Positions 3,195 through 19,393 of a stretch of DNA of 19,393 nt are shown in pieces (the stretch's first letter is position 1; the number at the start of each line of letters is the position of its first letter). Source of the DNA: a virus (Duplodnaviria > Heunggongvirae > Uroviricota > Caudoviricetes); IMG/VR virus record IMGVR_UViG_3300018432_000003, positions 1 through 19,393 of that record; one strand, given 5' to 3'. Below the pieces are notes generated by a model that searched no databases, was not told the DNA's origin, and saw only the letters and a list, made by a program, of their open reading frames with translations. The position numbers and the translations under genes were made by a program.

Positions 3195-4361
3195 AGTACC
3201 TCCTTCCTCAATTCCTTTATCGTCGTTTACACTCTCGTCCGGGGTTACTCCCTCGAACTCCCCGGCTGAGAGGTCGATTGTCTCATCGTCCGGGTCAATT
3301 CCTGCCTTGACTGCCTCCCACGCACCCATCTCACCTAGGCGCGGGAAGTGTGTTCCTGCAACGTGCAAGAGCGTCGGGCCGTAGTACTTGCCTGTGCTCG
3401 GATGCACGAAGTTCGGGTGTACTTTCACGCTCACACCGAACTCAGGGTTGTGCTCTACAATCTTCTTCGCCTCATCAGTGAGTGAGAAGTCTGCATACAT
3501 CTTCGTAGGGTTCTCTTCGTCGTCCAGTGATAGGGAAGTCACCCTGCCAGCGTAGTCCCTCGGGTGGTCCGTGCCAGCATTGCTCTGGTGTAGGAACTGG
3601 AATGGTACGTACGCGAACGGCTTCTCTTTCCAGTTTGCGTATGCCTTCTTCAGCATCTCTGCCGTGAATCGTACCTTCCTACCTTGGTAATTGATGTCAC
3701 CAACTCTCCAGATTTCCTTGCGGAATGTACCGTCTGCACTCGCTGTCGCGGCATTACCCAACTCAACGACTGGTAGACGGAGCGCAAGCTCTGGCGCTGC
3801 TGACAACTCCATAATATCTAACCACTTGTTTGTGTCCACTTCTGTGTTCACCCCCTCCCCCCAATCATCGGACAACTCTATGATGGCATAGTCCATAAAC
3901 ATCTCGTCAGAGAGGGCGATGCTCTCAGTGATTTCCTTGCCGTCTGCACGGCGCTGTACGCGCCTCTTGGCCTTCTCAAGTTCCAGTATGTCAATCTCAC
4001 CCTCTGCTGCGGCGAGAATCATACCATCAATGAACTCTTCTGACGCCTTCGCCTTCCTCTTCTCCCACTGTGCCACTGCGCTGCATGCTGCGGTCTGTAC
4101 GGCCTTAGAAACGCTGACCTTACCGCCGAATGCCTTGCCGGTTGCACACGTTTTCTTCGCCCAATTGACTGCCGTCGCAATAACCCTGCTTATACTCCAG
4201 CCTGGGTTCTCGCGTAGGATTGCAGTCGCAACACTGTTGATGTATGTAGGTAGGCCACCATTCTTCTCCACCCAATTCTTCAAGGGTGAGAGATTAAGCT
4301 GACCCTTGCGCTCGGGATGGAGGGCTGGTACACCGCCAGCTAGTTCAATCACTGTTGTCAT
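2673..4361 (-). CDS. Capsid maturation protease (Mu gpI-like) fused to an N-terminal helical domain and a C-terminal scaffold
   Basis: 562 aa; ATG overlaps the portal stop (ATGA). Central FRKEIWRVG...LHQ...YAGRV...GVSVKV...LLHVAGTHFPRL is typical of Mu-like prohead protease. Acidic coiled-coil C-terminus. Confidence 0.85.
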   Translation of the reverse strand: MTTVIELAGGVPALHPERKGQLNLSPLKNWVEKNGGLPTYINSVATAILRENPGWSISRVIATAVNWAKKTCATGKAFGGKVSVSKAVQTAACSAVAQWEKRKAKASEEFIDGMILAAAEGEIDILELEKAKRRVQRRADGKEITESIALSDEMFMDYAIIELSDDWGEGVNTEVDTNKWLDIMELSAAPELALRLPVVELGNAATASADGTFRKEIWRVGDINYQGRKVRFTAEMLKKAYANWKEKPFAYVPFQFLHQSNAGTDHPRDYAGRVTSLSLDDEENPTKMYADFSLTDEAKKIVEHNPEFGVSVKVHPNFVHPSTGKYYGPTLLHVAGTHFPRLGEMGAWEAVKAGIDPDDETIDLSAGEFEGVTPDESVNDDKGIEEGGTMADKTDEKNEQTFDLSAVMESDAFKDALKLAVDAQTEDLRKKNEALETKVQEQQKAGYSATVKAAVNTYRNAGVPPIVLDYAEALMLSLDESQRNEAIELSVGSGDDAKDVKLNPVQLITKMLDETKGAIDLGVEKGTGEDPDETDLSSEKVQDDAAAYLADLAHLEYETVES

Positions 4362-5866
4362 GAATCATTCCTCCTGCGCTTTCTCCTGCTTGGGGTACGT
4401 GGGGTTTCAGGTCCACGCATCTGAGAGACTATACTTAGCTCGTCACTCACTTCCTTGCTGCTCGTAGTTGCGCTTAGCTTATCCTCTGCGGCTGTCTTTT
4501 GGTTGTTGTTGTTCTTGTCGTCGCCAGTCACCGCATTCTGACCACTACCCGCACGAGCCTCCTTACTCAAGAGGTTCTCACGTGCAGTCGGTATCGCCTT
4601 AACAATCTGCCTGTACTCTTCGTCGTCGTACTCAATCATCGGGTCAATTTCAAGGCCGAGGATGTCCTCAACACGCTGCATTAGCTGGAGCATGAAGTTC
4701 GGTGTCACGTTCGGTGCGTTTGAACCTATGATTGCCTTGTATGTCTCCAACACTGCGTCGGCAGTCTCGTCGTTGAGAGGACGGAACCTCAGCTTCGGGT
4801 ATGATGCATCCTGTCCGAAGTTGTACTGTACGAGGTCGGCTATCACATAATTGTTTATTGTCTCAGCCATATCGTCCAAGACCCCTTCAAGCTGGTTGAA
4901 GAAGAAGCTGGACTTGTCCTTTGAGAGTGCAAAGGAGCCTCGTTCGCCACTGGTTCCGAGGTCCAAGAACTGTCCGAGAGCCGCTCTAGCCATTTCCCAG
5001 TTAAGGTACTCAAGTGCGCTCTGATAATCTCGTGTGTTTCGCTGTGATTCATAGCTCTCAATCTCTTCATGCTCGTAAAGACCCATGATGCCGTTATGTG
5101 CGAGCATCCTAGCCTTGTCGAGCAAGTGCCTCAACTCAGTCGGGTCGTCACCAGCTACCTTTGCAATCGTACGTGGGAATGCCACGTTCTCTAGGAATGC
5201 AAAGTAGAAGAATGACACCTTCAGCTTCGAGAGGTAGTTCTTGTAGATTGTATCGAAGGGAGTCATACCAAGGATAGGGTTCTCGTCCGCACCGTGGATG
5301 TACACTAGGGCACGCTTCGGGTCGAAGTTCTGCTTTATGTACTTGTTCCCTTTGTATGCATCCTGCTGGAATCCATTGAAGCTACCGTTGGTGTCAGTAC
5401 GCAACTTGCACGTTGCCGGTGGACGCCAACCTAGCTTGTGGAGAACAACCTTGTCCTTGTACTTGCCCCTCTCCTGCACCTTCCAGACCTTCTCGAACGC
5501 CTGGAACCTGTAGATGATTGCGTTAGACATCTGTGCAATCACTTGCTTGAATGGGGTTGTCATGCCCCCTTGCTTGTAGGATGATAGTAGCGCATACTCT
5601 ACGAAGTCACGCTCACCGTTATCCCCTTCGGTGGCGAGGAACTCAAACTGCGCCCCTTTAATGGGTAGCTTCAGTGCAGTCGCAAGCTGTCTAGCCTGTG
5701 CGTCGTTCCTCAACATCTTCTCTAAGTCACGTACACTCGGACCACCGTCCAACTCCATGACCGTCATATCTTGTGGGTTTCGATACACTCGGGCAGGGTC
5801 GTAGGCTGTGCCCGACTCGTACTTGCGAGTATTCGGTATCTCGACCTCTACCTTAGTGATTGGCAT
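4358..5866 (-). CDS. Portal protein (Mu gp29/DUF935-like)
   Basis: 502 aa directly after terL. Segments LEKMLRNDAQARQLATALKLPI, YRFQAFEKVW, HGADENPILG, LNWEMARAALGQFL, GSFALS, INNYVIADLVQYNFG, YPKLRF. Confidence 0.9.
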   Translation of the reverse strand: MPITKVEVEIPNTRKYESGTAYDPARVYRNPQDMTVMELDGGPSVRDLEKMLRNDAQARQLATALKLPIKGAQFEFLATEGDNGERDFVEYALLSSYKQGGMTTPFKQVIAQMSNAIIYRFQAFEKVWKVQERGKYKDKVVLHKLGWRPPATCKLRTDTNGSFNGFQQDAYKGNKYIKQNFDPKRALVYIHGADENPILGMTPFDTIYKNYLSKLKVSFFYFAFLENVAFPRTIAKVAGDDPTELRHLLDKARMLAHNGIMGLYEHEEIESYESQRNTRDYQSALEYLNWEMARAALGQFLDLGTSGERGSFALSKDKSSFFFNQLEGVLDDMAETINNYVIADLVQYNFGQDASYPKLRFRPLNDETADAVLETYKAIIGSNAPNVTPNFMLQLMQRVEDILGLEIDPMIEYDDEEYRQIVKAIPTARENLLSKEARAGSGQNAVTGDDKNNNNQKTAAEDKLSATTSSKEVSDELSIVSQMRGPETPRTPSRRKRRRNDS

Positions 5867-12959: not shown

Positions 12960-15092
12960 CTAGAAGTTATCGTGGCAGTATACCTTACCGTTATTGAACC
13001 CTGCTGCCGTCTTGCACCCTGCCGTTATGTCAGTACCGTTGAATCTTACCTTCTCACTGCCGATGTTATTGTTGTATGCCTCTGCATTAAGCATGTCAGT
13101 CCTGTGGTCTGCTCCATCACTGAACTGCAACGCCCTCAGATTAGGGCCGTACGACACTCCACCGAAGGTAGCCGCACCGAAAGTGTTACCCCTCGCAGTG
13201 CAGTTCTGTGCGTCGTGGCATATGAATCCTGCTCCGTCACTTGCGTTGAATCCATTACCAGCGAACACGTTGTTCTCAATCAGTGAAGTCTCTGCTGTAG
13301 ATACCTGACCAGGGTCAAGTTGAGGACTGAACTCGTAACGAACACCGCTCCTACCGTTGTTGGCGAATGCACTGTCATGAATCCAGTAACCGTTCGTGCG
13401 TGCTGCGATGTTGTCGCAACCAACGTCACACCACAACCCTACTGCGGGGTTATCGTGTACCCATACCCTGTCGAACTCTGCTTCCTTAACGCTCTTACCT
13501 ACACTCGATGCCCAACCCCATGCATTCGGGTCGTACCCGCAGTTAGTGAACTCAGACCTACGTACAATCCCCGACATACCGGCGATGCACTGCACTGGTC
13601 CGTCCTTCACTTCCACGTGGTCTAGCACCGTCCCTGGTCCAGACTCGCCTAGTCCCAACACGTTACCGCTGCCTGTTACAATGCAGTAATCTGGTCCTGG
13701 GTTCCTGTCCGTGCAGCGAGGGTCGTCGAACGCCACGTCAGTCATTAGCTGGTGGTGTCCAGTCCATTCGTGCCACGTCATTGTGAAGTTTGCACCAGTC
13801 TGCGCTGTAAGCATCCTAGTAATCGTCGGTCCTGGGTCGGAAGTGTAGATATGCACACCGTTGTTAGGGTCAACCCCTGGTCCCTTCGGTGAGGTAGTTC
13901 CAGGTTGTCCCTCGAAGAAGTCACCTTCCTGCGCTACCACTGTAGTGCTGCCAGTGTTGTAGTCTCCATTCTCAACGCAGAAGTGTGCGCCCGCTGGTGT
14001 GTTATTTACGATAGATGCATAATCATCACCATTGCGTATCTTAGTACCCTCGCAAGTGTCAATCCATGCCTGCTGAGGAACACCGCCTACGTTAGTGTTG
14101 TTCTGTAGTGTAGTCCCACAGCCGTTTGCACACAACTGAATCCTGTCACCACCGAGGTCATTGTTAGACACTAGGTTGTTGGAGTTCACAGGTGCTCTTG
14201 CATCATCCAGTATTCTTATGCCTTGTCCGTTGTTCAACTCAGTGTGTCCGTCGAATGTGTTGTTGTTAACAGTCACGTCACTGGCTGAATTGATTAAGAA
14301 CCCTAGGTGTTGATTAGCTGGAGCCAGCCACCCATTAGATGTGAAGGTGTTTCCTTCAATCAGACAAGTGTTCAAGCAGTCAGTGATTTCAACTGACACC
14401 CCACCCTTGCCATTGTTAGTGAAGTCTGAATTCTGAATGTCAAAGTCGTCACACTGGATGTCGCACCATGCACCCATCCACCTGTTGTCCTTGACATCTA
14501 CATTATCGAGAGTTGCTGAACTTACAGTCTTGAGTCCCGCCGCTGATACTGGACCTTCACTCTCTCCTGAGAATACGGTGCTGCCGTTTGCATCAAGAAT
14601 AGAGTCTTGTATCAACAACCCTGGTCCGGTTCCGCCAACTCCTTGGTTCTCGTTACCAGTCGCTCTTACATCCTTGATTGTAAGGTTACTGCCTCCACCG
14701 CCGATTCCACGCCCACAGTCTGGTGAGCAGTCCTCATTACCCACAGCGCCAGTGACCGTCAACCCTTGTATCAGGGCACCACTGCCACTGCTAGTGTCGA
14801 AGATGTGCTGTGCCGTAGTGGTCGAAACCCTCGGCCTAGTGTTGTCAGAGTATGCGCCAATCCACTGGTCACCATTCTGTACAGGTATATCACTGTCAAC
14901 AGTGTACCTTCCGTCACGCAGACAGAATAAGCTACCAGCCTCTCGGTTGTTTGCTACGTTAACGAGATTACTCCCGGATGATACGTTCGGTGTACATGCA
15001 GTTGGGGGTTTTGGTGCGGCTACAGCGGTCGCTGCAAAGAGTAGGGAAGTGCAGATGATAAGAATGAATACAAGTAGTACGCGCTTCGTCAT
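12960..15092 (-). CDS. Secreted protein with two right-handed parallel beta-helix (pectin lyase-like) domains, 710 aa
   Basis: Start revised to ATG 15092 (GAGGTG upstream) because the track start lies in tRNA-Gln. Signal peptide MTKRVLLVFILIICTSLLFAATAVAA. Asn/Gly ladders and many Cys. The two halves begin similarly (...AGSLFCLRDGRY / ...AGAHFCVENGDY). Confidence 0.85.
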   Translation of the reverse strand: MTKRVLLVFILIICTSLLFAATAVAAPKPPTACTPNVSSGSNLVNVANNREAGSLFCLRDGRYTVDSDIPVQNGDQWIGAYSDNTRPRVSTTTAQHIFDTSSGSGALIQGLTVTGAVGNEDCSPDCGRGIGGGGSNLTIKDVRATGNENQGVGGTGPGLLIQDSILDANGSTVFSGESEGPVSAAGLKTVSSATLDNVDVKDNRWMGAWCDIQCDDFDIQNSDFTNNGKGGVSVEITDCLNTCLIEGNTFTSNGWLAPANQHLGFLINSASDVTVNNNTFDGHTELNNGQGIRILDDARAPVNSNNLVSNNDLGGDRIQLCANGCGTTLQNNTNVGGVPQQAWIDTCEGTKIRNGDDYASIVNNTPAGAHFCVENGDYNTGSTTVVAQEGDFFEGQPGTTSPKGPGVDPNNGVHIYTSDPGPTITRMLTAQTGANFTMTWHEWTGHHQLMTDVAFDDPRCTDRNPGPDYCIVTGSGNVLGLGESGPGTVLDHVEVKDGPVQCIAGMSGIVRRSEFTNCGYDPNAWGWASSVGKSVKEAEFDRVWVHDNPAVGLWCDVGCDNIAARTNGYWIHDSAFANNGRSGVRYEFSPQLDPGQVSTAETSLIENNVFAGNGFNASDGAGFICHDAQNCTARGNTFGAATFGGVSYGPNLRALQFSDGADHRTDMLNAEAYNNNIGSEKVRFNGTDITAGCKTAAGFNNGKVYCHDNF

Positions 15093-15133
15093 ATACACCT
15101 CGAAAACTGAATGATAGTATTGAACAATGAAAG

Positions 15134-15208
15134 TTGCACCGGAAGGAATCGAACCTTCGACATTGTGGTTCAAAGCCACAACACCAATGCCAGCATAGTA
15201 ACAGTGCA
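15134..15208 (-). tRNA. tRNA-Gln(TTG)
   Basis: Acceptor TGCACTG/CGGTGCA, anticodon arm TGTGG-CTTTGAA-CCACA, T-loop TTCGATT; no CCA. Confidence 0.9.
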
Positions 15209-15213
15209 ATGCG

Positions 15214-15581
15214 GATTATACTTGGGTATAGGCGGGGTTCTGTATTAACCTAGCATCCATCTGAGCCTCTACCCGTTTCCTATGTAGGCCATTTTCTTGG
15301 GCAAGAAAACGGTCGCATACAGGAAACTGTTTGAGTTGCACACGCCGGAGATTGCCTGCGTCATGGTATTACCCACAACCCTGCCCTTGTTCGGTGCGCT
15401 TGGCACCATCTCGGCTGGACAGCTTTCAGTAAGTGCCTACCTTACCTTCTCTCTGTTGCTCTTATCGTCTACAGCCATCACTGACTGCATCCCCACCTTA
15501 TTAGGGTGAGCGGTTTTAGTGTGCCCCGACCTTCCTCGATAGGGGAAAGTCCCTACCGCGCTAGGAGAGCCAAGTATAATC
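15214..15581 (-). ncRNA. rnpB: RNase P RNA (bacterial type-A-like, lacking P18 and P19)
   Basis: 12-bp P1 (15570-15581/15214-15225). P2 CCTAGCG/TGCTAGG. P3 hairpin. P4 pseudoknot GAGGAAGGTCGGGGC ... ACAGAACCCCGCCTA with the bulged U. P5 CACAC/GTGTG. P8; P9 with GUGA loop. CR-II GCAACAGAGAG. P12 then TGAAAG. P13 GGTGC/GCACC. P14 with GTAA. GCAGGCAATCTCC. P15 CTC/GAG with L15 AAACA/GGGTA. P16/P17. AGATGGATG before P2. Confidence 0.92.
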
Positions 15582-15585
15582 TAAG

Positions 15586-15657
15586 TCGGCACGGTGAGAA
15601 TCGAACTCACGACTTCCGCTTTATCAGAACGGCGCTCTACCCCTGAACTACGTGCCA
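15586..15657 (-). tRNA. tRNA-Ile(GAT)
   Basis: Acceptor TGGCACG/CGTGCCG, D stem GTTC/GAGC, anticodon arm CCGTT-CTGATAA-AGCGG, TTCGATT; no CCA. Confidence 0.92.
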
Positions 15658-15857
15658 GTGCGTACTAAATCTTCCCTGTCGAATACAGGCTCCCAATCCT
15701 CATCCACTAAGGTGACCGATGGATACCCTGCAATGTGCAAGAACCCTCCGGTAGTGGAGATGACGGGCTGTATGCTATTCTTAGGGAAAGTCTTGTTAAT
15801 CATCATCTTGGCTCGGAGCAACCGCACCCTAAATTGCATGGGTTCGTGGTCGCTCAT
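15648..15857 (-). CDS. Hypothetical protein (69 aa)
   Basis: AAAGGA SD. Fills the spacer between tRNA-Gly and tRNA-Ile; the TAG stop is positions 8-10 of tRNA-Ile. Confidence 0.65.
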   Translation of the reverse strand: MSDHEPMQFRVRLLRAKMMINKTFPKNSIQPVISTTGGFLHIAGYPSVTLVDEDWEPVFDREDLVRTGT

Positions 15858-15891
15858 ATCGGGTGGTCCTTTCCAAGTGATGTACTAAAAG

Positions 15892-15963
15892 AAGGGCATA
15901 CGAGAGTCGAACTCGTGACACTTGGGTGGAAGCCAAGTACGTTACCAGCTACGCCAATGCCCC
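15892..15963 (-). tRNA. tRNA-Gly(TCC)
   Basis: Acceptor GGGGCAT/ATGCCCT, U73, anticodon arm CTTGG-CTTCCAC-CCAAG, TTCGACT; no CCA. Confidence 0.92.
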
Positions 15964-16170
15964 AAATTGTGAGTCATACATGAATGATGCATCAGCGACT
16001 CCATTAGCCGCCTTGTTCTTTCCTTCTTCCTTCAGAACCTCAGCTACGGTCCCTGCCGTGATGTTCGGTCCATATCGCGTGACTATACGTAGGTTCCTTA
16101 CTGCTGCCTTGTTCTCTTCCGAGAGTTGGGCCTCCACATCCTTGTAGAGTACCGTATCCTCAACACCCAT
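15949..16170 (-). CDS. Hypothetical protein (73 aa)
   Basis: AAAGGA SD; stop TAG lies in the D arm of tRNA-Gly(TCC). Confidence 0.7.
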   Translation of the reverse strand: MGVEDTVLYKDVEAQLSEENKAAVRNLRIVTRYGPNITAGTVAEVLKEEGKNKAANGVADASFMYDSQFGALA

Positions 16171-16193
16171 AGTATAATCCTTTCGATTGTGAG

Positions 16194-16265
16194 TGTGGCT
16201 TACGGGAATCGAACCCGTCTTTCAGCGTTGGCAACGCCACGTAATAGCCGATATACCAAAGCCAC
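16194..16265 (-). tRNA. tRNA-Gly(GCC)
   Basis: Acceptor GTGGCTT/AAGCCAC, anticodon loop TTGCCAA with a weak stem (two G-U pairs), TTCGATT; A73; no CCA. Confidence 0.85.
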
Positions 16266-16268
16266 ATA

Positions 16269-16517
16269 TTACCAGAACTTCCACCAAGGTGTGGTCGCTT
16301 CCTTCCACAACCTCTCTGCAAGTCGTCTTGTGTCGTCATACTCAATGAATGAGTAGTAGGGTCGTTCCCCTTCCCATCCTTGCCGGAAGAACACTCGTAT
16401 GTGGTCGCCCCTGTCCTCTGACCCGTCCATGTGCATGTACATCATGCGGTGCCAGTTCAGGACCTCGATGCGCCCATACTTTTCGAGTGTATCCTTATGT
16501 AAGTCTACGTACCACAT
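16269..16517 (-). CDS. Hypothetical protein (82 aa, aromatic-rich)
   Basis: Exactly fills the Arg(CCT)-Gly(GCC) spacer; ATG 2 nt after the tRNA discriminator. Confidence 0.7.
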   Translation of the reverse strand: MWYVDLHKDTLEKYGRIEVLNWHRMMYMHMDGSEDRGDHIRVFFRQGWEGERPYYSFIEYDDTRRLAERLWKEATTPWWKFW

Positions 16518-16519
16518 AG

Positions 16520-16593
16520 CCTTCCTAGTAGGAGTCGAACCTACGGCCTACCGCTTAGGAGGCGGTCGCTCTGTCCATCTGAGCTATAGGAAG
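16520..16593 (-). tRNA. tRNA-Arg(CCT)
   Basis: Acceptor CTTCCTA/TAGGAAG, D stem GCTC/GAGC, anticodon arm ACCGC-CTCCTAA-GCGGT, TTCGACT; G73; no CCA. Confidence 0.93.
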
Positions 16594-16881
16594 TCACTTG
16601 TGCGTGAACATGCTCTCAAGGATTTGGTACCAACCCTCGTCGCTCTGTATCACGTCTTGCTGTATTAGGACGGGGTACTCGGTCAGTACTATGACCCAAC
16701 GTAGAGTCTGCATGTCTTTCCAACTCCATCGTATGTGCCAACCCTTATACTTCTCGGGGATGATGTAGTCCAACCAGCTTGCACCCTCTGGGAGTTCTTC
16801 CTTCCACTCAGGCTTAGGCCAGCGACGGTACTCGTCCTCTGGGAACTCAATTACCACTATGTCGTCTGTTATCTCTATCAT
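16594..16881 (-). CDS. Hypothetical protein (95 aa, Trp-rich)
   Basis: Start revised to ATG 16881 (MIEITDDIVVIEF...), since the track start is inside tRNA-Arg(TCT). Stop abuts tRNA-Arg(CCT) with a 0-nt gap. Confidence 0.7.
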   Translation of the reverse strand: MIEITDDIVVIEFPEDEYRRWPKPEWKEELPEGASWLDYIIPEKYKGWHIRWSWKDMQTLRWVIVLTEYPVLIQQDVIQSDEGWYQILESMFTHK

Positions 16882-16883
16882 AG

Positions 16884-16956
16884 CACGCCCCGTAGGAATC
16901 GAACCCACATAATCCAGCTTAGAAGGCTGGCGCATTCTCCGTTCTGCCAGAGGCGC
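16884..16956 (-). tRNA. tRNA-Arg(TCT)
   Basis: Acceptor GCGCCTC/GGGGCGT, anticodon arm CCAGC-CTTCTAA-GCTGG, TTCGATT; G73; no CCA. Confidence 0.92.
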
Positions 16957-16959
16957 ATG

Positions 16960-17121
16960 TTATCTACAGCAGCAACACTTGCACTTGCAAGTACTGTTTG
17001 CTTCCTCTACTTCTTTCGGTGTGACGACCCTGCCGCACGATAGGCACTTCAATTCAAGAATTGCCTCAGCGCCAGTTCGTCCCTTGGTCACCATCTCCAC
17101 ATTGTCATGTTTGCAACTCAT
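16960..17121 (-). CDS. Cys-rich small protein, 53 aa (not in ORF track)
   Basis: MSCKHDNVEMVTKGRTGAEAILELKCLSCGRVVTPKEVEEANSTCKCKCCCCR. ATGA-coupled to the upstream gene; stop 3 nt before the tRNA. Confidence 0.7.
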   Translation of the reverse strand: MSCKHDNVEMVTKGRTGAEAILELKCLSCGRVVTPKEVEEANSTCKCKCCCCR

Positions 17122-17348
17122 ACTTGGAGTATCACTTGATACTTCTGCCGTATGAACTGGACTTGCACTGCAAGCTCGATGTTGTTGTCCTCGATTTTAC
17201 CTACAGTCCAACTAGGTCCGAACATCTCTGACAGTGTGCGTATCGCCTTAGTCTGCTTATCCTGCCAGTCAACTTCATTCTTAGGGAAGAAGCTGTACGG
17301 TATGCGTACAATCCTACTGTCGAATACGCTTATTGTCGTGTTATCCAC
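17118..17348 (-). CDS. Hypothetical protein (76 aa)
   Basis: GTG start overlaps the upstream stop by 8 nt; the TGA is coupled to the next ATG. Confidence 0.65.
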   Translation of the reverse strand: MDNTTISVFDSRIVRIPYSFFPKNEVDWQDKQTKAIRTLSEMFGPSWTVGKIEDNNIELAVQVQFIRQKYQVILQV

Positions 17349-17514
17349 GTGCTCTCAGCACCGCCTTAACCCAAGCTATCGGAACGTACCATCCTTCACC
17401 ACGCACATGGTAGCTGTCGGGTTTCCTGTTCAGCAGACCCAACGCCCTAAGTGCGGTACACACATAGTGGTACTTGTGTCCTCTGAATCTCGCGTCCTCC
17501 GGTATACGCATCAT
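17341..17514 (-). CDS. Hypothetical basic protein, 57 aa (not in ORF track)
   Basis: MMRIPEDARFRGHKYHYVCTALRALGLLNRKPDSYHVRGEGWYVPIAWVKAVLRARG; ATG 2 nt after the tRNA-Arg(ACG) discriminator. Confidence 0.65.
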   Translation of the reverse strand: MMRIPEDARFRGHKYHYVCTALRALGLLNRKPDSYHVRGEGWYVPIAWVKAVLRARG

Positions 17515-17516
17515 AG

Positions 17517-17588
17517 CCTGTCTCCCAGGAATCGAACCCGGATTTGAGCGTTCGTAGCGCCCCGCACTCTCCGTTGTACTAGAGACAG
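17517..17588 (-). tRNA. tRNA-Arg(ACG)
   Basis: Acceptor CTGTCTC/GAGACAG, anticodon arm GGGCG-CTACGAA-CGCTC, TTCGATT; G73; no CCA. Confidence 0.92.
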
Positions 17589-17592
17589 ATTG

Positions 17593-17778
17593 TTATAGAG
17601 GGTTGACAATGACCCTCACTTTCTGTTCATCGTACACCTGACCGTCCTCATCCTTTATCGTCTGAACTGCGTTGGCGTCCAAGCTGTCCAGAGCAAAGAG
17701 ATGGAGGGGCTTATGGTTGTCGATGTACACCGTAAGGTTTCCATTATAGTGCCGCTCTATTTCTATTATGTGGTCCAT
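17593..17778 (-). CDS. Hypothetical protein (61 aa)
   Basis: Fills the Lys(CTT)-Arg(ACG) spacer; ATG 2 nt after the discriminator. Confidence 0.65.
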   Translation of the reverse strand: MDHIIEIERHYNGNLTVYIDNHKPLHLFALDSLDANAVQTIKDEDGQVYDEQKVRVIVNPL

Positions 17779-17780
17779 AG

Positions 17781-17849
17781 TGAACTGCCAAGGAATCGAA
17801 CCTTGCCTCCTGAGATTAAGAGCCTCTGATGCGTGCCACCGCGCAGTCC
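17781..17849 (-). tRNA. tRNA-Lys(CTT), atypical (69 nt, shrunken D arm)
   Basis: Acceptor GGACTGC/GCAGTTC, T arm CAAGG-TTCGATT-CCTTG, anticodon GAGG-CTCTTAA-TCTC. D arm is only GCG-GTGGCA-CGC. Confidence 0.7.
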
Positions 17850-17852
17850 ATG

Positions 17853-18011
17853 TTATTGGTTCTGAAACTTCTCGTCGTCGAACGCCCTGTCCACTTGCTT
17901 GAGCAACTTGATTGCAGCCTCCACCATCGTCTTGACTGGCTCGCCGTAACCGTAGTGTTCACTGCTGTCCTGCTGTACTAGTTCAATTGCCTTCTCAATC
18001 TTTGTCTTGAT
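17853..18011 (-). CDS. Hypothetical protein, 52 aa, apparent ATC start (not in ORF track)
   Basis: AGGAGG, then 5 nt, then ATC AAG ACA AAG...: (M)KTKIEKAIELVQQDSSEHYGYGEPVKTMVEAAIKLLKQVDRAFDDEKFQNQ. An in-frame TAG lies just upstream; the ORF fills the spacer between the two Lys tRNAs. Confidence 0.55.
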   Translation of the reverse strand: MKTKIEKAIELVQQDSSEHYGYGEPVKTMVEAAIKLLKQVDRAFDDEKFQNQ

Positions 18012-18027
18012 GACTGCCTCCTATAAG

Positions 18028-18097
18028 AGAGCCGTGCAGGAGTCGAACCCGCCTTCTGAGATTAAAAGCCTCGTGAGGTCCACCAGACCGACGGCCC
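18028..18097 (-). tRNA. tRNA-Lys(TTT), atypical (70 nt, 5-nt D loop)
   Basis: Acceptor GGGCCGT/ACGGCTC, D arm GGTC-TGGTG-GACC, anticodon GAGG-CTTTTAA-TCTC, T arm GCGGG-TTCGACT-CCTGC; U73. Confidence 0.75.
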
Positions 18098-18100
18098 ATG

Positions 18101-18334
18101 TCAACCCTTCTTCTCCAACAACTGTATGTTGAACTTCTGGGTTTTGTTGTTGTAGAACGTGAACTGGCTTATGTCAGTGCCGTCCAACCCCATCTCGTCA
18201 ACTACGTCCGCAATCTCTCGCAGTATATCAGTGAATGCCTCCTTGCTGCCCTCGAAGTCTATCTTCCGGGTTATGGTGAACCCTTGCATGTAGAACGTCC
18301 GATTGCCTATGGGTGGAAGTTTTTCTTCACTCAT
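18101..18334 (-). CDS. Hypothetical protein (77 aa), probably leaderless
   Basis: Start revised to ATG 18334 (MSEEKLPPIG...); the track extension runs through two tRNAs. ATG lies 6 nt after the -10 box and there is no SD. Confidence 0.75.
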   Translation of the reverse strand: MSEEKLPPIGNRTFYMQGFTITRKIDFEGSKEAFTDILREIADVVDEMGLDGTDISQFTFYNNKTQKFNIQLLEKKG

Positions 18335-18340
18335 AACTAC

Positions 18341-18369
18341 ATTATACCATACTTTCAGTGGTTTGTCAA
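18341..18369 (-). promoter_or_regulatory. Consensus sigma70/SigA promoter with extended -10
   Basis: TTGACA (18369-18364), a 17-nt spacer ending TGG, then TATAAT (18346-18341): perfect -35, -10, spacing and TGn. Confidence 0.9.
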
Positions 18370-18376
18370 GTGGGAG

Positions 18377-18448
18377 AGCATCTACCGGGAGTCGAACCCA
18401 GGACTGGTCCGTACCAAGGACCCGTTTTACCACTAGAACTATAGATGC
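18377..18448 (-). tRNA. tRNA-Thr(GGT)
   Basis: Acceptor GCATCTA/TAGATGC, anticodon arm GGTCC-TTGGTAC-GGACC, TTCGACT; no CCA. Confidence 0.92.
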
Positions 18449-18495
18449 GGGTGCGAGGGCAACACGCGGTTTGGGCCGCGCCCCTCGCATGTGAG

Positions 18496-18568
18496 TGGAG
18501 ATACAGGGACTCGAACCCTGAATACTGCGGTGCAAGCGCAGCGTGTTCCCAATTAGCACTATATCCCC
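18496..18568 (-). tRNA. tRNA-Ala(TGC)
   Basis: Acceptor GGGGATA/TATCTCC with the G3-U70 Ala determinant, anticodon arm CTGCG-CTTGCAC-CGCAG, TTCGAGT; A73; no CCA. Confidence 0.93.
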
Positions 18569-18641
18569 ATGTGCCCCGAGTTTTGATTACTGGATACGGG
18601 GTGAACCAGATTGCTACGCTACCGTCGCACGTAACTCTAAG

Positions 18642-18712
18642 AGCATCCTACCGGAGTCGAACCGATACCAACTGCGTACGAAGCAGCCGCAATCCCATTA
18701 TGCTAAGGATGC
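18642..18712 (-). tRNA. tRNA-Thr(CGT)
   Basis: Acceptor GCATCCT/AGGATGC, anticodon arm GCTGC-TTCGTAC-GCAGT, TTCGACT; no CCA. Confidence 0.9.
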
Positions 18713-18833
18713 TGGTGGTAGCTCACTCACCCACTACCGCGCCTCTCGGCCCTCTCCCCTGCGTCACACCACTTCCTAGTAGGCCGATGGTTTCCTAGGA
18801 CGCTTCGACCGTTCGGGGTAGGTGTCACCCGAG

Positions 18834-18904
18834 AGCACGTAACAGGAATCGAACCCGTACCAGAGGTGTACAAAACCCCCGCAATACCATTATGCTATAC
18901 GTGC
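18834..18904 (-). tRNA. tRNA-Thr(TGT)
   Basis: Acceptor GCACGTA/TACGTGC, anticodon arm GGGGT-TTTGTAC-ACCTC, TTCGATT; D arm nearly identical to that of Thr(CGT); no CCA. Confidence 0.9.
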
Positions 18905-19035
18905 TTACGTTCTTTCATTACTGCCAGTCCTACTGCGAGTGCAGAGCAGAACGAGAAGAGTATGGAATAACCCTCCGCTCTCTGCGCCTTGTAGGTGCCC
19001 TCCGCGAGAGTCGCCGCCAATTCTATCGGGTTCAT
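18895..19035 (-). CDS. Small protein with a hydrophobic segment, 46 aa (not in ORF track)
   Basis: MNPIELAATLAEGTYKAQRAEGYSILFSFCSALAVGLAVMKERKHV; ATGA-coupled; TAG is positions 8-10 of tRNA-Thr(TGT). Confidence 0.55.
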   Translation of the reverse strand: MNPIELAATLAEGTYKAQRAEGYSILFSFCSALAVGLAVMKERKHV

Positions 19036-19130
19036 CCCACAGGCTCCATGCAAGAGGGACAGCACCCAAAGTTCTCATCGACTTCCTGCTCGTCGAGTTC
19101 CTCACCGCAAACCTCACAGTACCAGTTCAT
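19032..19130 (-). CDS. Mini zinc-ribbon protein, 32 aa (not in ORF track)
   Basis: MNWYCEVCGEELDEQEVDENFGCCPSCMEPVG: CxxC...CPxC; ATGA-coupled at both ends. Confidence 0.65.
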   Translation of the reverse strand: MNWYCEVCGEELDEQEVDENFGCCPSCMEPVG

Positions 19131-19237
19131 CCGAACTCCTGATAGCTACGAAGCAACCACTTCAATCTCTCTGCGGCATCCTCGTCGCCAGCTAGAACCT
19201 TCTCAACCAACTCGTCTACGAACGTATAATCATTCAC
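19127..19237 (-). CDS. Small helical protein, 36 aa (not in ORF track)
   Basis: MNDYTFVDELVEKVLAGDEDAAERLKWLLRSYQEFG; GTGA-coupled to the upstream stop. Confidence 0.55.
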   Translation of the reverse strand: MNDYTFVDELVEKVLAGDEDAAERLKWLLRSYQEFG

Positions 19238-19392
19238 TTCTTGTTCTTGCTCCCCTTCTTGGGTCCTGGCTTACTCCCACGCTGTGACGGTGACTTCTTC
19301 TTCCGTCTAGGGTACTTGCGCTTTGAGGCTGACTTTGCCGCATTCTTGTTGCCCATCTTCTTGCCTTGGGCACCTTTCTTCACGCGACCAGA
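19234..19392 (-). CDS. C-terminal part of a highly Lys/Arg-rich protein (starts outside the window)
   Basis: ...SGRVKKGAQGKKMGNKNAAKSASKRKYPRRKKKSPSQRGSKPGPKKGSKNKK*; open to the window edge. Confidence 0.65.
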   Translation of the reverse strand, partial: SGRVKKGAQGKKMGNKNAAKSASKRKYPRRKKKSPSQRGSKPGPKKGSKNKK

Positions 19393-19393
19393 C

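Follow-up and report, generated by a model that had tools for sequence, protein, structure and literature searches.

An RNase P RNA gene set flush between two phage tRNA genes is probably matured as a unit of a tRNA-array transcript

Results

A ribozyme gene fills the interval between tRNA-Ile and tRNA-Gln

The tailed-phage genome IMGVR_UViG_3300018432_000003 (IMG/VR; Caudoviricetes) encodes an RNase P RNA between a tRNA-Ile and a tRNA-Gln gene, with only a few nucleotides on either side. The stretch analysed here (the window) comprises the first 19,393 nt of this 95,940-nt record, which has direct terminal repeats and is rated 100% complete. We consider it likely, from the arrangement of genes and signals, that this ribozyme is transcribed as an inner segment of a longer stable-RNA precursor, and that its two ends would be set by processing of the flanking tRNAs.

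The genome carries 34 tRNA genes in one array, all on the minus strand between positions 15133 and 22380, and the last 13 of these lie within the window. Following the minus strand, the locus opens with tRNA-Ile(GAU) (15586..15657), which was called by ARAGORN, scores 59.4 bits against the Rfam tRNA model, folds into a cloverleaf and ends without an encoded CCA at its discriminator A (15586). Its trailer, identified by sequence and by trailer statistics, is the 4-nt spacer CUUA (15582..15585, minus strand). There follows a divergent RNase P RNA of bacterial type A (RF00010; 15214..15581, minus strand), measuring 368 nt from the first to the last P1 pair. Direct reading and a helix search both give P1 as a 12-bp helix in which G15581-G15570 pairs with C15225-C15214: the 5′ strand is GAUUAUACUUGG (15570..15581, minus strand), which also pairs in the minimum free energy (MFE) fold of the precursor, and the 3′ strand is CCAAGUAUAAUC (15214..15225, minus strand). 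The 5-nt spacer CGCAU (15209..15213, minus strand) then serves as the 5′ leader of pre-tRNA-Gln, and tRNA-Gln(UUG) (15134..15208, minus strand; ARAGORN; Rfam 40.5 bits), likewise without an encoded CCA, begins with U15208 as its +1.

An earlier note on this DNA had claimed that P1 begins 4 nt past the tRNA-Ile discriminator and finishes 5 nt ahead of +1 of tRNA-Gln, that the tRNA-Gln leader ends in A(-2)U(-1), and that no promoter or terminator is evident in either gap. Each of these statements agrees with the sequence (CUUA at 15585-15582, CGCAU at 15213-15209), and gaps of 4 and 5 nt are too short to hold either signal. The ribozyme thus takes up 368 of the 377 nt separating the two tRNAs. 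Its two gaps sum to 9 nt, against 5-14 nt for a typical tight tRNA-tRNA spacer of the array. Gaps between tRNAs of the array span 5 to 560 nt, and both ribozyme junctions are no longer than the smallest of them. The Rfam consensus likewise has about 4 unpaired nucleotides at its 3′ end, comparable to the CGCAU tail. All three genes lie on the minus strand, so that an RNase P RNA gene sits between two same-strand tRNA genes, as in the yeast mitochondrial RPM1 unit considered below.

Promoter and terminator placement supports co-transcription

Promoters and terminators were sought with crude consensus scans, and the counts were compared with those in shuffled sequence. The genome contains 12 perfect TTGACA-N17-TATAAT sites, where ~0.01 would be expected by chance. 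Six are on the minus strand (23711, 23425, 22902, 22669, 22553 and 18369), upstream of or inside the tRNA array and directed toward the ribozyme. The nearest strong one, a perfect TTGACA-17-TATAAT with a TG extension (18341..18369, minus strand), lies inside the array; the others are at L217:3226-3254, 3342-3370, 3575-3603, 4098-4126 and 4384-4412 (minus strand). The remaining six perfect promoters are found from 25.7 to 71.2 kb of the genome, on the plus strand. It appears that the phage relies on host sigma-70 consensus promoters in unmodified form, arranged in two divergent blocks.

From the promoter at 18341-18369 to the ribozyme, we found no further perfect promoter and no predicted terminator on the minus strand. 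Minus-strand terminator-like sites are absent from 14800-19393, and no terminator was found on either strand in 19300-24500, an interval in which shuffled sequences give about four. On this placement of signals, co-transcription of the ribozyme with its flanking tRNAs is probable.

The layout is kept in the closest relative

The sole close relative that we found is L121, a 23-kb IMG/VR fragment whose ribozyme scores 74.1 bits. Across the aligned tRNA-ribozyme-tRNA stretch it is 82% identical to the window. Its order is a promoter-like site, tRNA-Gly(UCC), one or more open reading frames (ORFs), a tRNA-like element, the ribozyme, tRNA-Gln and a strong intrinsic terminator. This terminator, a 13-bp stem with a T-run 15 nt past tRNA-Gln, is placed only after the downstream tRNA, as predicted by a single transcription unit. 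In L121, the upstream gap measures 1-3 nt and the downstream gap 3-5 nt, according to whether P1 is taken to include two terminal A-U pairs. The anticodon stem of its tRNA-Gln differs in sequence from that of the window but still pairs.

The element upstream of the L121 ribozyme (L121:1418-1494, plus strand) scores 31.2 bits against the Rfam tRNA model and is not called by ARAGORN. Its fold retains a 7-bp acceptor stem and a canonical T arm around an irregular middle. As a single example, it may be a tRNA-Ile remnant in which the acceptor/T-arm module has been retained as a processing handle.

Three lineage-specific patterns, two searched in viral contigs and one in metagenome contigs, returned the L121 contig or nothing. 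A terminase-based search for relatives gave a 6-kb fragment that does not include the region. One further hit, L216, came from a looser metagenome pattern; it holds neither an RNase P RNA nor a tRNA, and we set it aside as a chance match.

Flush ribozymes recur in phages but not in a bacterial control

A degenerate pattern for conserved region I (CR-I) of RNase P RNA matched at least 115 stretches in IMG/VR, and ~41 among the matches listed also have conserved region V (CR-V) at the right distance. For 30 viral records from the matches listed, which form 22 clusters at 75% identity, we obtained Rfam coordinates and tRNA positions. At least one same-strand tRNA lies within 1.5 kb of the RNase P RNA in 26/30 records, and an opposite-strand tRNA in 0/30. 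The ribozyme is flush with a tRNA on both sides in 11/30 (9 after removal of near-identical pairs), upstream only in 4/30 and downstream only in another 4/30. Measured from P1, flush ribozymes begin 1-5 nt past the upstream discriminator and finish 3-7 nt ahead of the downstream +1. They occur in at least four flanking tRNA contexts: Ile/Gln (here), Thr(GGU)/Gly(GCC), Cys/Gly(UCC) and Val/Arg. Because the 30 ribozymes fall into 22 clusters, the flush layout is, on sequence comparison, not one inherited accident.

For a control, two genomes were chosen arbitrarily and bacterial genomes were sampled from the phylum of each. We located rnpB in these two samples and ran ARAGORN on 60 loci, two loci from unpublished genomes having been left out. 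A tRNA within 30 nt was found at 0/60 of these loci; seven had any tRNA within 1.5 kb, the nearest at 574 nt. Since L121 keeps the flush arrangement, and since 11/30 viral RNase P RNAs are flush on both sides as against 0/60 bacterial rnpB genes, comparison of these sequences indicates that the arrangement is not due to chance.

Further variants occur in viral records. Miniature RNase P RNAs of 207-243 nt occur in tRNA arrays of 190-499-kb viral records (L119:1501-1707, L120:1501-1743 and L122:1501-1742); one of them reaches 118.5 bits at 207 nt, and those of L120 and L122 have a tRNA 2-5 nt downstream. Two other records, L130 (372 kb) and L131 (497 kb), carry identical RNase P RNA loci of 247 bits with no tRNA within 1.5 kb; these may be cellular DNA in giant 'viral' bins, or a different arrangement.

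BLAST of a 601-nt stretch of the window (tRNA-Ile, ribozyme and tRNA-Gln) against GenBank phage records matched tRNA-Ile genes alone; the ribozyme of the window was searched only as part of this stretch. Two other phage ribozymes, searched against 50,697 GenBank phage records, matched no annotated cultured phage; their matches were a few unannotated faecal 'Bacteriophage sp.' fragments, two 'Acinetobacter phage' contig records that are unannotated at the ribozyme match, and a misfiled Salmonella contig. In the open literature searched, we found no report of a phage- or virus-encoded RNase P RNA.

The spacing might nevertheless reflect mere compaction, with the ribozyme transcribed from a weak promoter of its own in or just upstream of tRNA-Ile, or with its ends produced by other nucleases such as RNase E, RNase III or exonucleases; tRNA processing would then be incidental. 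Phage genomes are compact, promoter-like sites run from 15600 to 15573 (a 9/12 match) and from 15799 to 15772, and in the yeast mitochondrial unit RPM1 is closely preceded by a second promoter (PMC3866640). Promoter-like sites are, however, no more numerous than in shuffled sequence. The site at 15600->15573, the sole one near the ribozyme, has its -10 inside P1, so that transcripts begun from it would be missing the conserved 5′ strand of P1, and L121 does not keep its -35; on these grounds we rejected an internal ribozyme promoter. Compaction, for its part, does not account for an array whose tRNA-tRNA gaps are far from uniformly tight and yet whose two ribozyme junctions are both at most 5 nt, nor for the same 1-5 and 3-7 nt spacing in four unrelated tRNA contexts. 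A single-stranded CUUA of 4 nt would also be a poor target for RNase E. We therefore regard this explanation as unlikely.

The ribozyme is conserved in structure

The RNase P RNA was found by a permissive Rfam scan; at the gathering threshold, only tRNAs are reported for the window. RF00010 aligns over its full length (model positions 1-367) to 15214-15577, with 76.6 bits and an E value of 3e-23. Helices P1-P5, P7-P14 and P15-P17 align to RF00010 or covary with L121. The long-range helix P4 is formed between CR-I, GAGGAAGGUCGGGGCAC (15521..15537, minus strand; pattern match and Rfam alignment), and CR-V, ACAGAACCCCGCCUA (15229..15243, minus strand; Rfam alignment, sequence and two-sequence alignment fold). 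Within the former, GAGGAAGGUCGGGGC pairs with ACAGAACCCCGCCUA, and the bulged U is retained. The 5′ strand of P4 departs from the consensus at two positions (A-to-G and C-to-G, GAGGAAAGUCC to GAGGAAGGUCG), and the 3′ strand carries the matching changes (CCCGGCUUA to CCCCGCCUA), so that P4 pairing is maintained. In the Rfam alignment, the GCAA of the joining segment J5/15 and the GGGUA of loop L15, which includes GGU, fall at consensus positions. In E. coli, the J5/15 adenosines contact N(-1) of the substrate and the L15 GGU contacts its 3′ RCC end, and the phage motifs would act likewise.

An alignment fold of the two ribozymes, from the window and from L121, contains 84 pairs, 15 of them compensatory, and joins columns 61-69 with 360-367 (P4). 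In P1, L121 has a single-base deletion on each strand, the two deletions matching one another. Judged by these substitutions, the ribozyme is under selection for its fold rather than a decaying capture. Because P4 carries two compensatory changes and the relative keeps the fold through 15 compensatory pairs, the ribozyme looks functional.

The opposing possibility is that the RNA is not a working enzyme, being either a host gene that was captured and is now decaying or a decoy that titrates the host protein subunit, RnpA; the tRNAs on either side would then carry no message about a catalytic loop. Its Rfam score lies below the gathering score of 100 bits set for RF00010, the P18 segment is aligned at 0/24 model positions, P13 and P16/17 carry insertions relative to the model, and no rnpA was found in the phage. 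P18 is also lost in some bacteria. Decay is at odds with the paired changes in P4, the retained J5/15 and L15 motifs and the compensatory pairs accumulated against a relative of ~82% identity, and a decoy would not need a catalytic core. We consider either form of this explanation quite improbable.

The exact CR-V variant of the window turned up sporadically, in one Nitrospirota metagenome-assembled genome (MAG), two Flavobacteriaceae and one Eggerthellaceae MAG. The doubly compensated P4 is not informative about the host, and we dropped host inference from it.

Substrate signals and processing enzymes

U(-1) is present in 23/34 tRNAs genome-wide (binomial p = 3e-8 against the base composition of the array) and A(-2) in 22/34, pre-tRNA-Gln included. 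For the 13 tRNAs in the window, the eight with U(-1) counted by the earlier note are confirmed. Nearly all of the tRNAs (31/34) lack an encoded CCA and are followed by CU instead, with C at +74 in 33/34 and U at +75 in 32/34; the CUUA after tRNA-Ile opens with this common CU. Before CCA addition, C74-U75 could pair with the L15 GGU of the ribozyme (G-C and G.U). The genome encodes a CCA-adding-type nucleotidyltransferase of 483 aa (L148; genome 58528-58911, plus strand).

In the complete 95,940-nt genome, no match to RnpA (PF00825) was found at E <= 1, in a search that was positive in 10/14 control genomes, and no metallo-beta-lactamase RNase Z was found. With neither rnpA nor an RNase Z gene in the phage, host enzymes must seed processing.

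The ribozyme is one of three non-tRNA structured RNAs of the array, all of which adjoin tRNAs. A transfer-messenger RNA (tmRNA; RF00023, 47.4 bits; L217:2479-2720, minus strand) ends 5 nt ahead of tRNA-Met, and a manA-like RNA (RF01745, 43.9 bits, below its cut-off of 55.2; L217:2763-3004, minus strand) begins 5 nt past tRNA-Glu.

A proposed maturation pathway

In the pathway that we propose, host sigma-70 RNA polymerase would start at the consensus promoters upstream of and within the 34-tRNA array and read through it. Host RNase P would make the first cuts, at the 5′ side of each tRNA; the one at 15208, the +1 of tRNA-Gln, would free the 3′ end of the ribozyme with its 5-nt CGCAU tail. At the other end, a host 3′-tRNA endonuclease, most likely RNase Z/BN, would cut past the discriminator of the CCA-less tRNA-Ile and leave the 4-nt CUUA overhang; an exonucleolytic route to this 5′ end is unlikely because only 4 nt precede a stable helix. 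The released phage RNA would bind host RnpA, since the phage encodes none, join the RNase P pool and process further precursors in trans. The earlier note had proposed that tRNA processing on both sides makes the ribozyme ends, and this part of its claim is supported by the placement of promoters and terminators, by L121, by recurrence among phages and by the bacterial control.

The earlier note had also suggested that the RNA releases its own 3′ end. A 3′ cut at tRNA-Gln fits the layout, but a reaction in cis is hardly possible. We expect that tRNA-Gln is probably cleaved in trans, by another RNase P molecule, because the linker is only 5 nt long (3-7 nt in the other phages) and leaves from the distal end of the 12-bp P1. 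In bacterial RNase P structures, P1 stacks away from the P4 active site. That each precursor folds and cuts the tRNA-Gln on its own 3′ end is highly improbable: ribozyme and substrate do share one molecule, and engineered RNase P RNA-tRNA conjugates can reportedly self-cleave (Frank, Harris and Pace in 1994), but with so short a linker at that end of P1 the 5′ end of the tRNA is probably out of reach of the active site, as judged from those structures.

A positive-feedback loop is plausible, which for a phage that has no rnpA would be capped by the supply of the host protein subunit. What the earlier note called self-release would thus be a trans-autocatalysis that depends on host protein.

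Several points weigh against the pathway or parts of it. The scans behind the promoter and terminator placement are crude, and the transcript and mature ends given here for this uncultured phage are predicted from sequence. Conservation within the lineage rests on two sequences, there being one close relative. With a sub-threshold Rfam score and P18 missing, activity of the phage RNA is not guaranteed. Feedback requires spare host RnpA and a precursor that is less active than its product, and the unprocessed precursor may already be active. A 5-nt single-stranded leader adjoining a helix may also weaken the contacts between RNase P protein and leader. Finally, MFE folding of the whole 524-nt precursor recovers P1 and the majority of the ribozyme helices, but in place of two cloverleaves it pairs the 5′ half of tRNA-Ile with the 3′ half of tRNA-Gln. 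This mispairing is probably an in-silico artefact that ignores co-transcriptional folding, and we took it as uninformative about the fold reached during transcription; it still shows that misfolding is possible.

Genomic surroundings of the array

On the minus strand, the window also encodes a major head protein, a portal, a large terminase, two large proteins and a 710-aa beta-helix protein. The last of these (12960..15092, minus strand; ORF list and Pfam Beta_helix), which has a signal-like N-terminus, is the gene downstream of the array and starts 41 nt past tRNA-Gln. Terminator scans predict none in the gap before this secreted-looking protein (15092-15133), whereas L121 has its strong terminator at the equivalent place (L121:1936-1980). 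In the window, 3′ processing of tRNA-Gln may thus also make the 5′ end of a structural-gene mRNA. Small same-strand ORFs occupy several of the longer tRNA-tRNA gaps, and some start or stop a few bases from a tRNA end; these candidate genes are at 15648-15857, 16269-16517, 16594-16935, 17341-17514 and 17593-17778 (minus strand).

Discussion

RNase P is the universal maker of tRNA 5′ ends, and its bacterial RNA is regarded as the product of a stand-alone housekeeping gene. In E. coli, rnpB is served by a promoter and a terminator of its own, and RNase E matures the 3′ end of its transcript. The phage RNA resembles the E. coli product, M1 RNA, in CR-I/CR-V and P4, in the J5/15 GCAA and L15 GGU and in the helices of the specificity domain. 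It differs in that bacterial rnpB, at the 60 loci sampled, stands alone, whereas the phage copy is without signals of its own, lacks P18 and falls below the family threshold.

The closest parallel to the arrangement lies in yeast mitochondria, where a single primary transcript is given for tRNAfMet-RPM1-tRNAPro (Turk et al. 2013, PMC3797045), a unit for which Stribinskis et al. 1996 is cited within PMC3866640. When tRNase Z is depleted there, mature RPM1 declines and its precursors accumulate; the removal of tRNAPro is the work of RNase P (Skowronek et al. 2014, PMC3866640); precursors of Rpm1r support RNase P activity poorly (PMC3790967). In the yeast unit, as in the phage locus, the gene for RNase P RNA has a same-strand tRNA gene on either side. 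It is co-transcribed with them, and tRNase Z at the upstream tRNA together with RNase P at the downstream tRNA helps to release the RNA, so that RNase P has a part in producing its own RNA subunit, as we infer for the phage. Unlike the phage locus, the yeast unit has long AT-rich spacers, a second promoter before RPM1, exonucleolytic 5′ trimming by Pet127 and a dedicated protein, Rpm2p. The yeast RNA is highly reduced and becomes fragmented, whereas the phage RNA is a near-complete bacterial type A ribozyme, with spacers of 4 and 5 nt, no promoter between, a viral setting and a protein subunit that would be borrowed from the host. The concept itself is therefore not new, RPM1 being the precedent; new here are the viral setting, the near-complete bacterial-type ribozyme, the spacers of a few nucleotides, the lack of an intervening promoter and the reliance on a host protein.

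Three further systems share parts of this organization. The tRNA punctuation model of mitochondrial genomes was reportedly put forward by Ojala, Montoya and Attardi in 1981. As we propose for the phage array, genes in a polycistronic mitochondrial transcript adjoin tRNAs almost without a spacer, and RNase P and RNase Z cuts define the ends of the neighbours; the setting there is an organelle, with a protein-only RNase P in animals, whereas in the phage the punctuated product would be the RNase P ribozyme itself. The model is treated in a review (PMC3790967). In phages, theta ribozymes, which are hepatitis delta virus (HDV)-like, adjoin tRNA genes of uncultured phages and have been connected with the maturation of tRNA ends (Kienbeck et al. 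2024, PMC10879173). They are small self-cleaving RNAs, each working in cis on the tRNA next to it, whereas RNase P RNA is a multiple-turnover enzyme that acts in trans and would here be released by tRNA processing. The tRNA operon of phage T4 offers a likeness of another kind, in non-tRNA stable RNAs within a phage tRNA transcript that are excised by host tRNA-processing enzymes. Broida and Abelson are said to have described in 1985 its co-transcribed stable RNAs, 'species 1 and 2'. T4 also has tRNAs without CCA, which need host RNase BN and CCA addition. Its extra RNAs, unlike the phage ribozyme, are small, of unknown function and not the processing enzyme.

Taken together with the recurrence across phages, the anatomy of the locus suggests that viral ribozymes of this kind are probably made as units of tRNA transcripts and excised by tRNA-processing enzymes, so that the enzyme would help to make its own RNA subunit. 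More tentatively, and with the balance of our judgement on the doubtful side, the flush tRNA-ribozyme-tRNA arrangement might be a maturation circuit that is specific to phages, has been selected and is shared by many large ones. Cuts by RNase Z and RNase P would then be the sole route to the ribozyme, its production would be autocatalytic in trans and controlled by the activity of host RNase P and RnpA, and tRNAs would serve as cut handles for the ribozyme, the tmRNA and the manA-like RNA. If true, mitochondrial punctuation would here have its first counterpart in the bacterial world in which punctuation also yields the very ribozyme that does the processing.

The proposed maturation would link phage biology to a mechanism otherwise known only from yeast mitochondria, and the locus offers a clean, testable example of trans-autocatalytic ribozyme maturation. 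Punctuation would also account for ribozyme genes that have neither promoter nor terminator, a point of importance for annotation. Searching for a spacing of 1-5 nt from a discriminator and of 3-7 nt to the following tRNA could reveal viral RNase P RNAs too divergent or too small to be picked up by covariance models.

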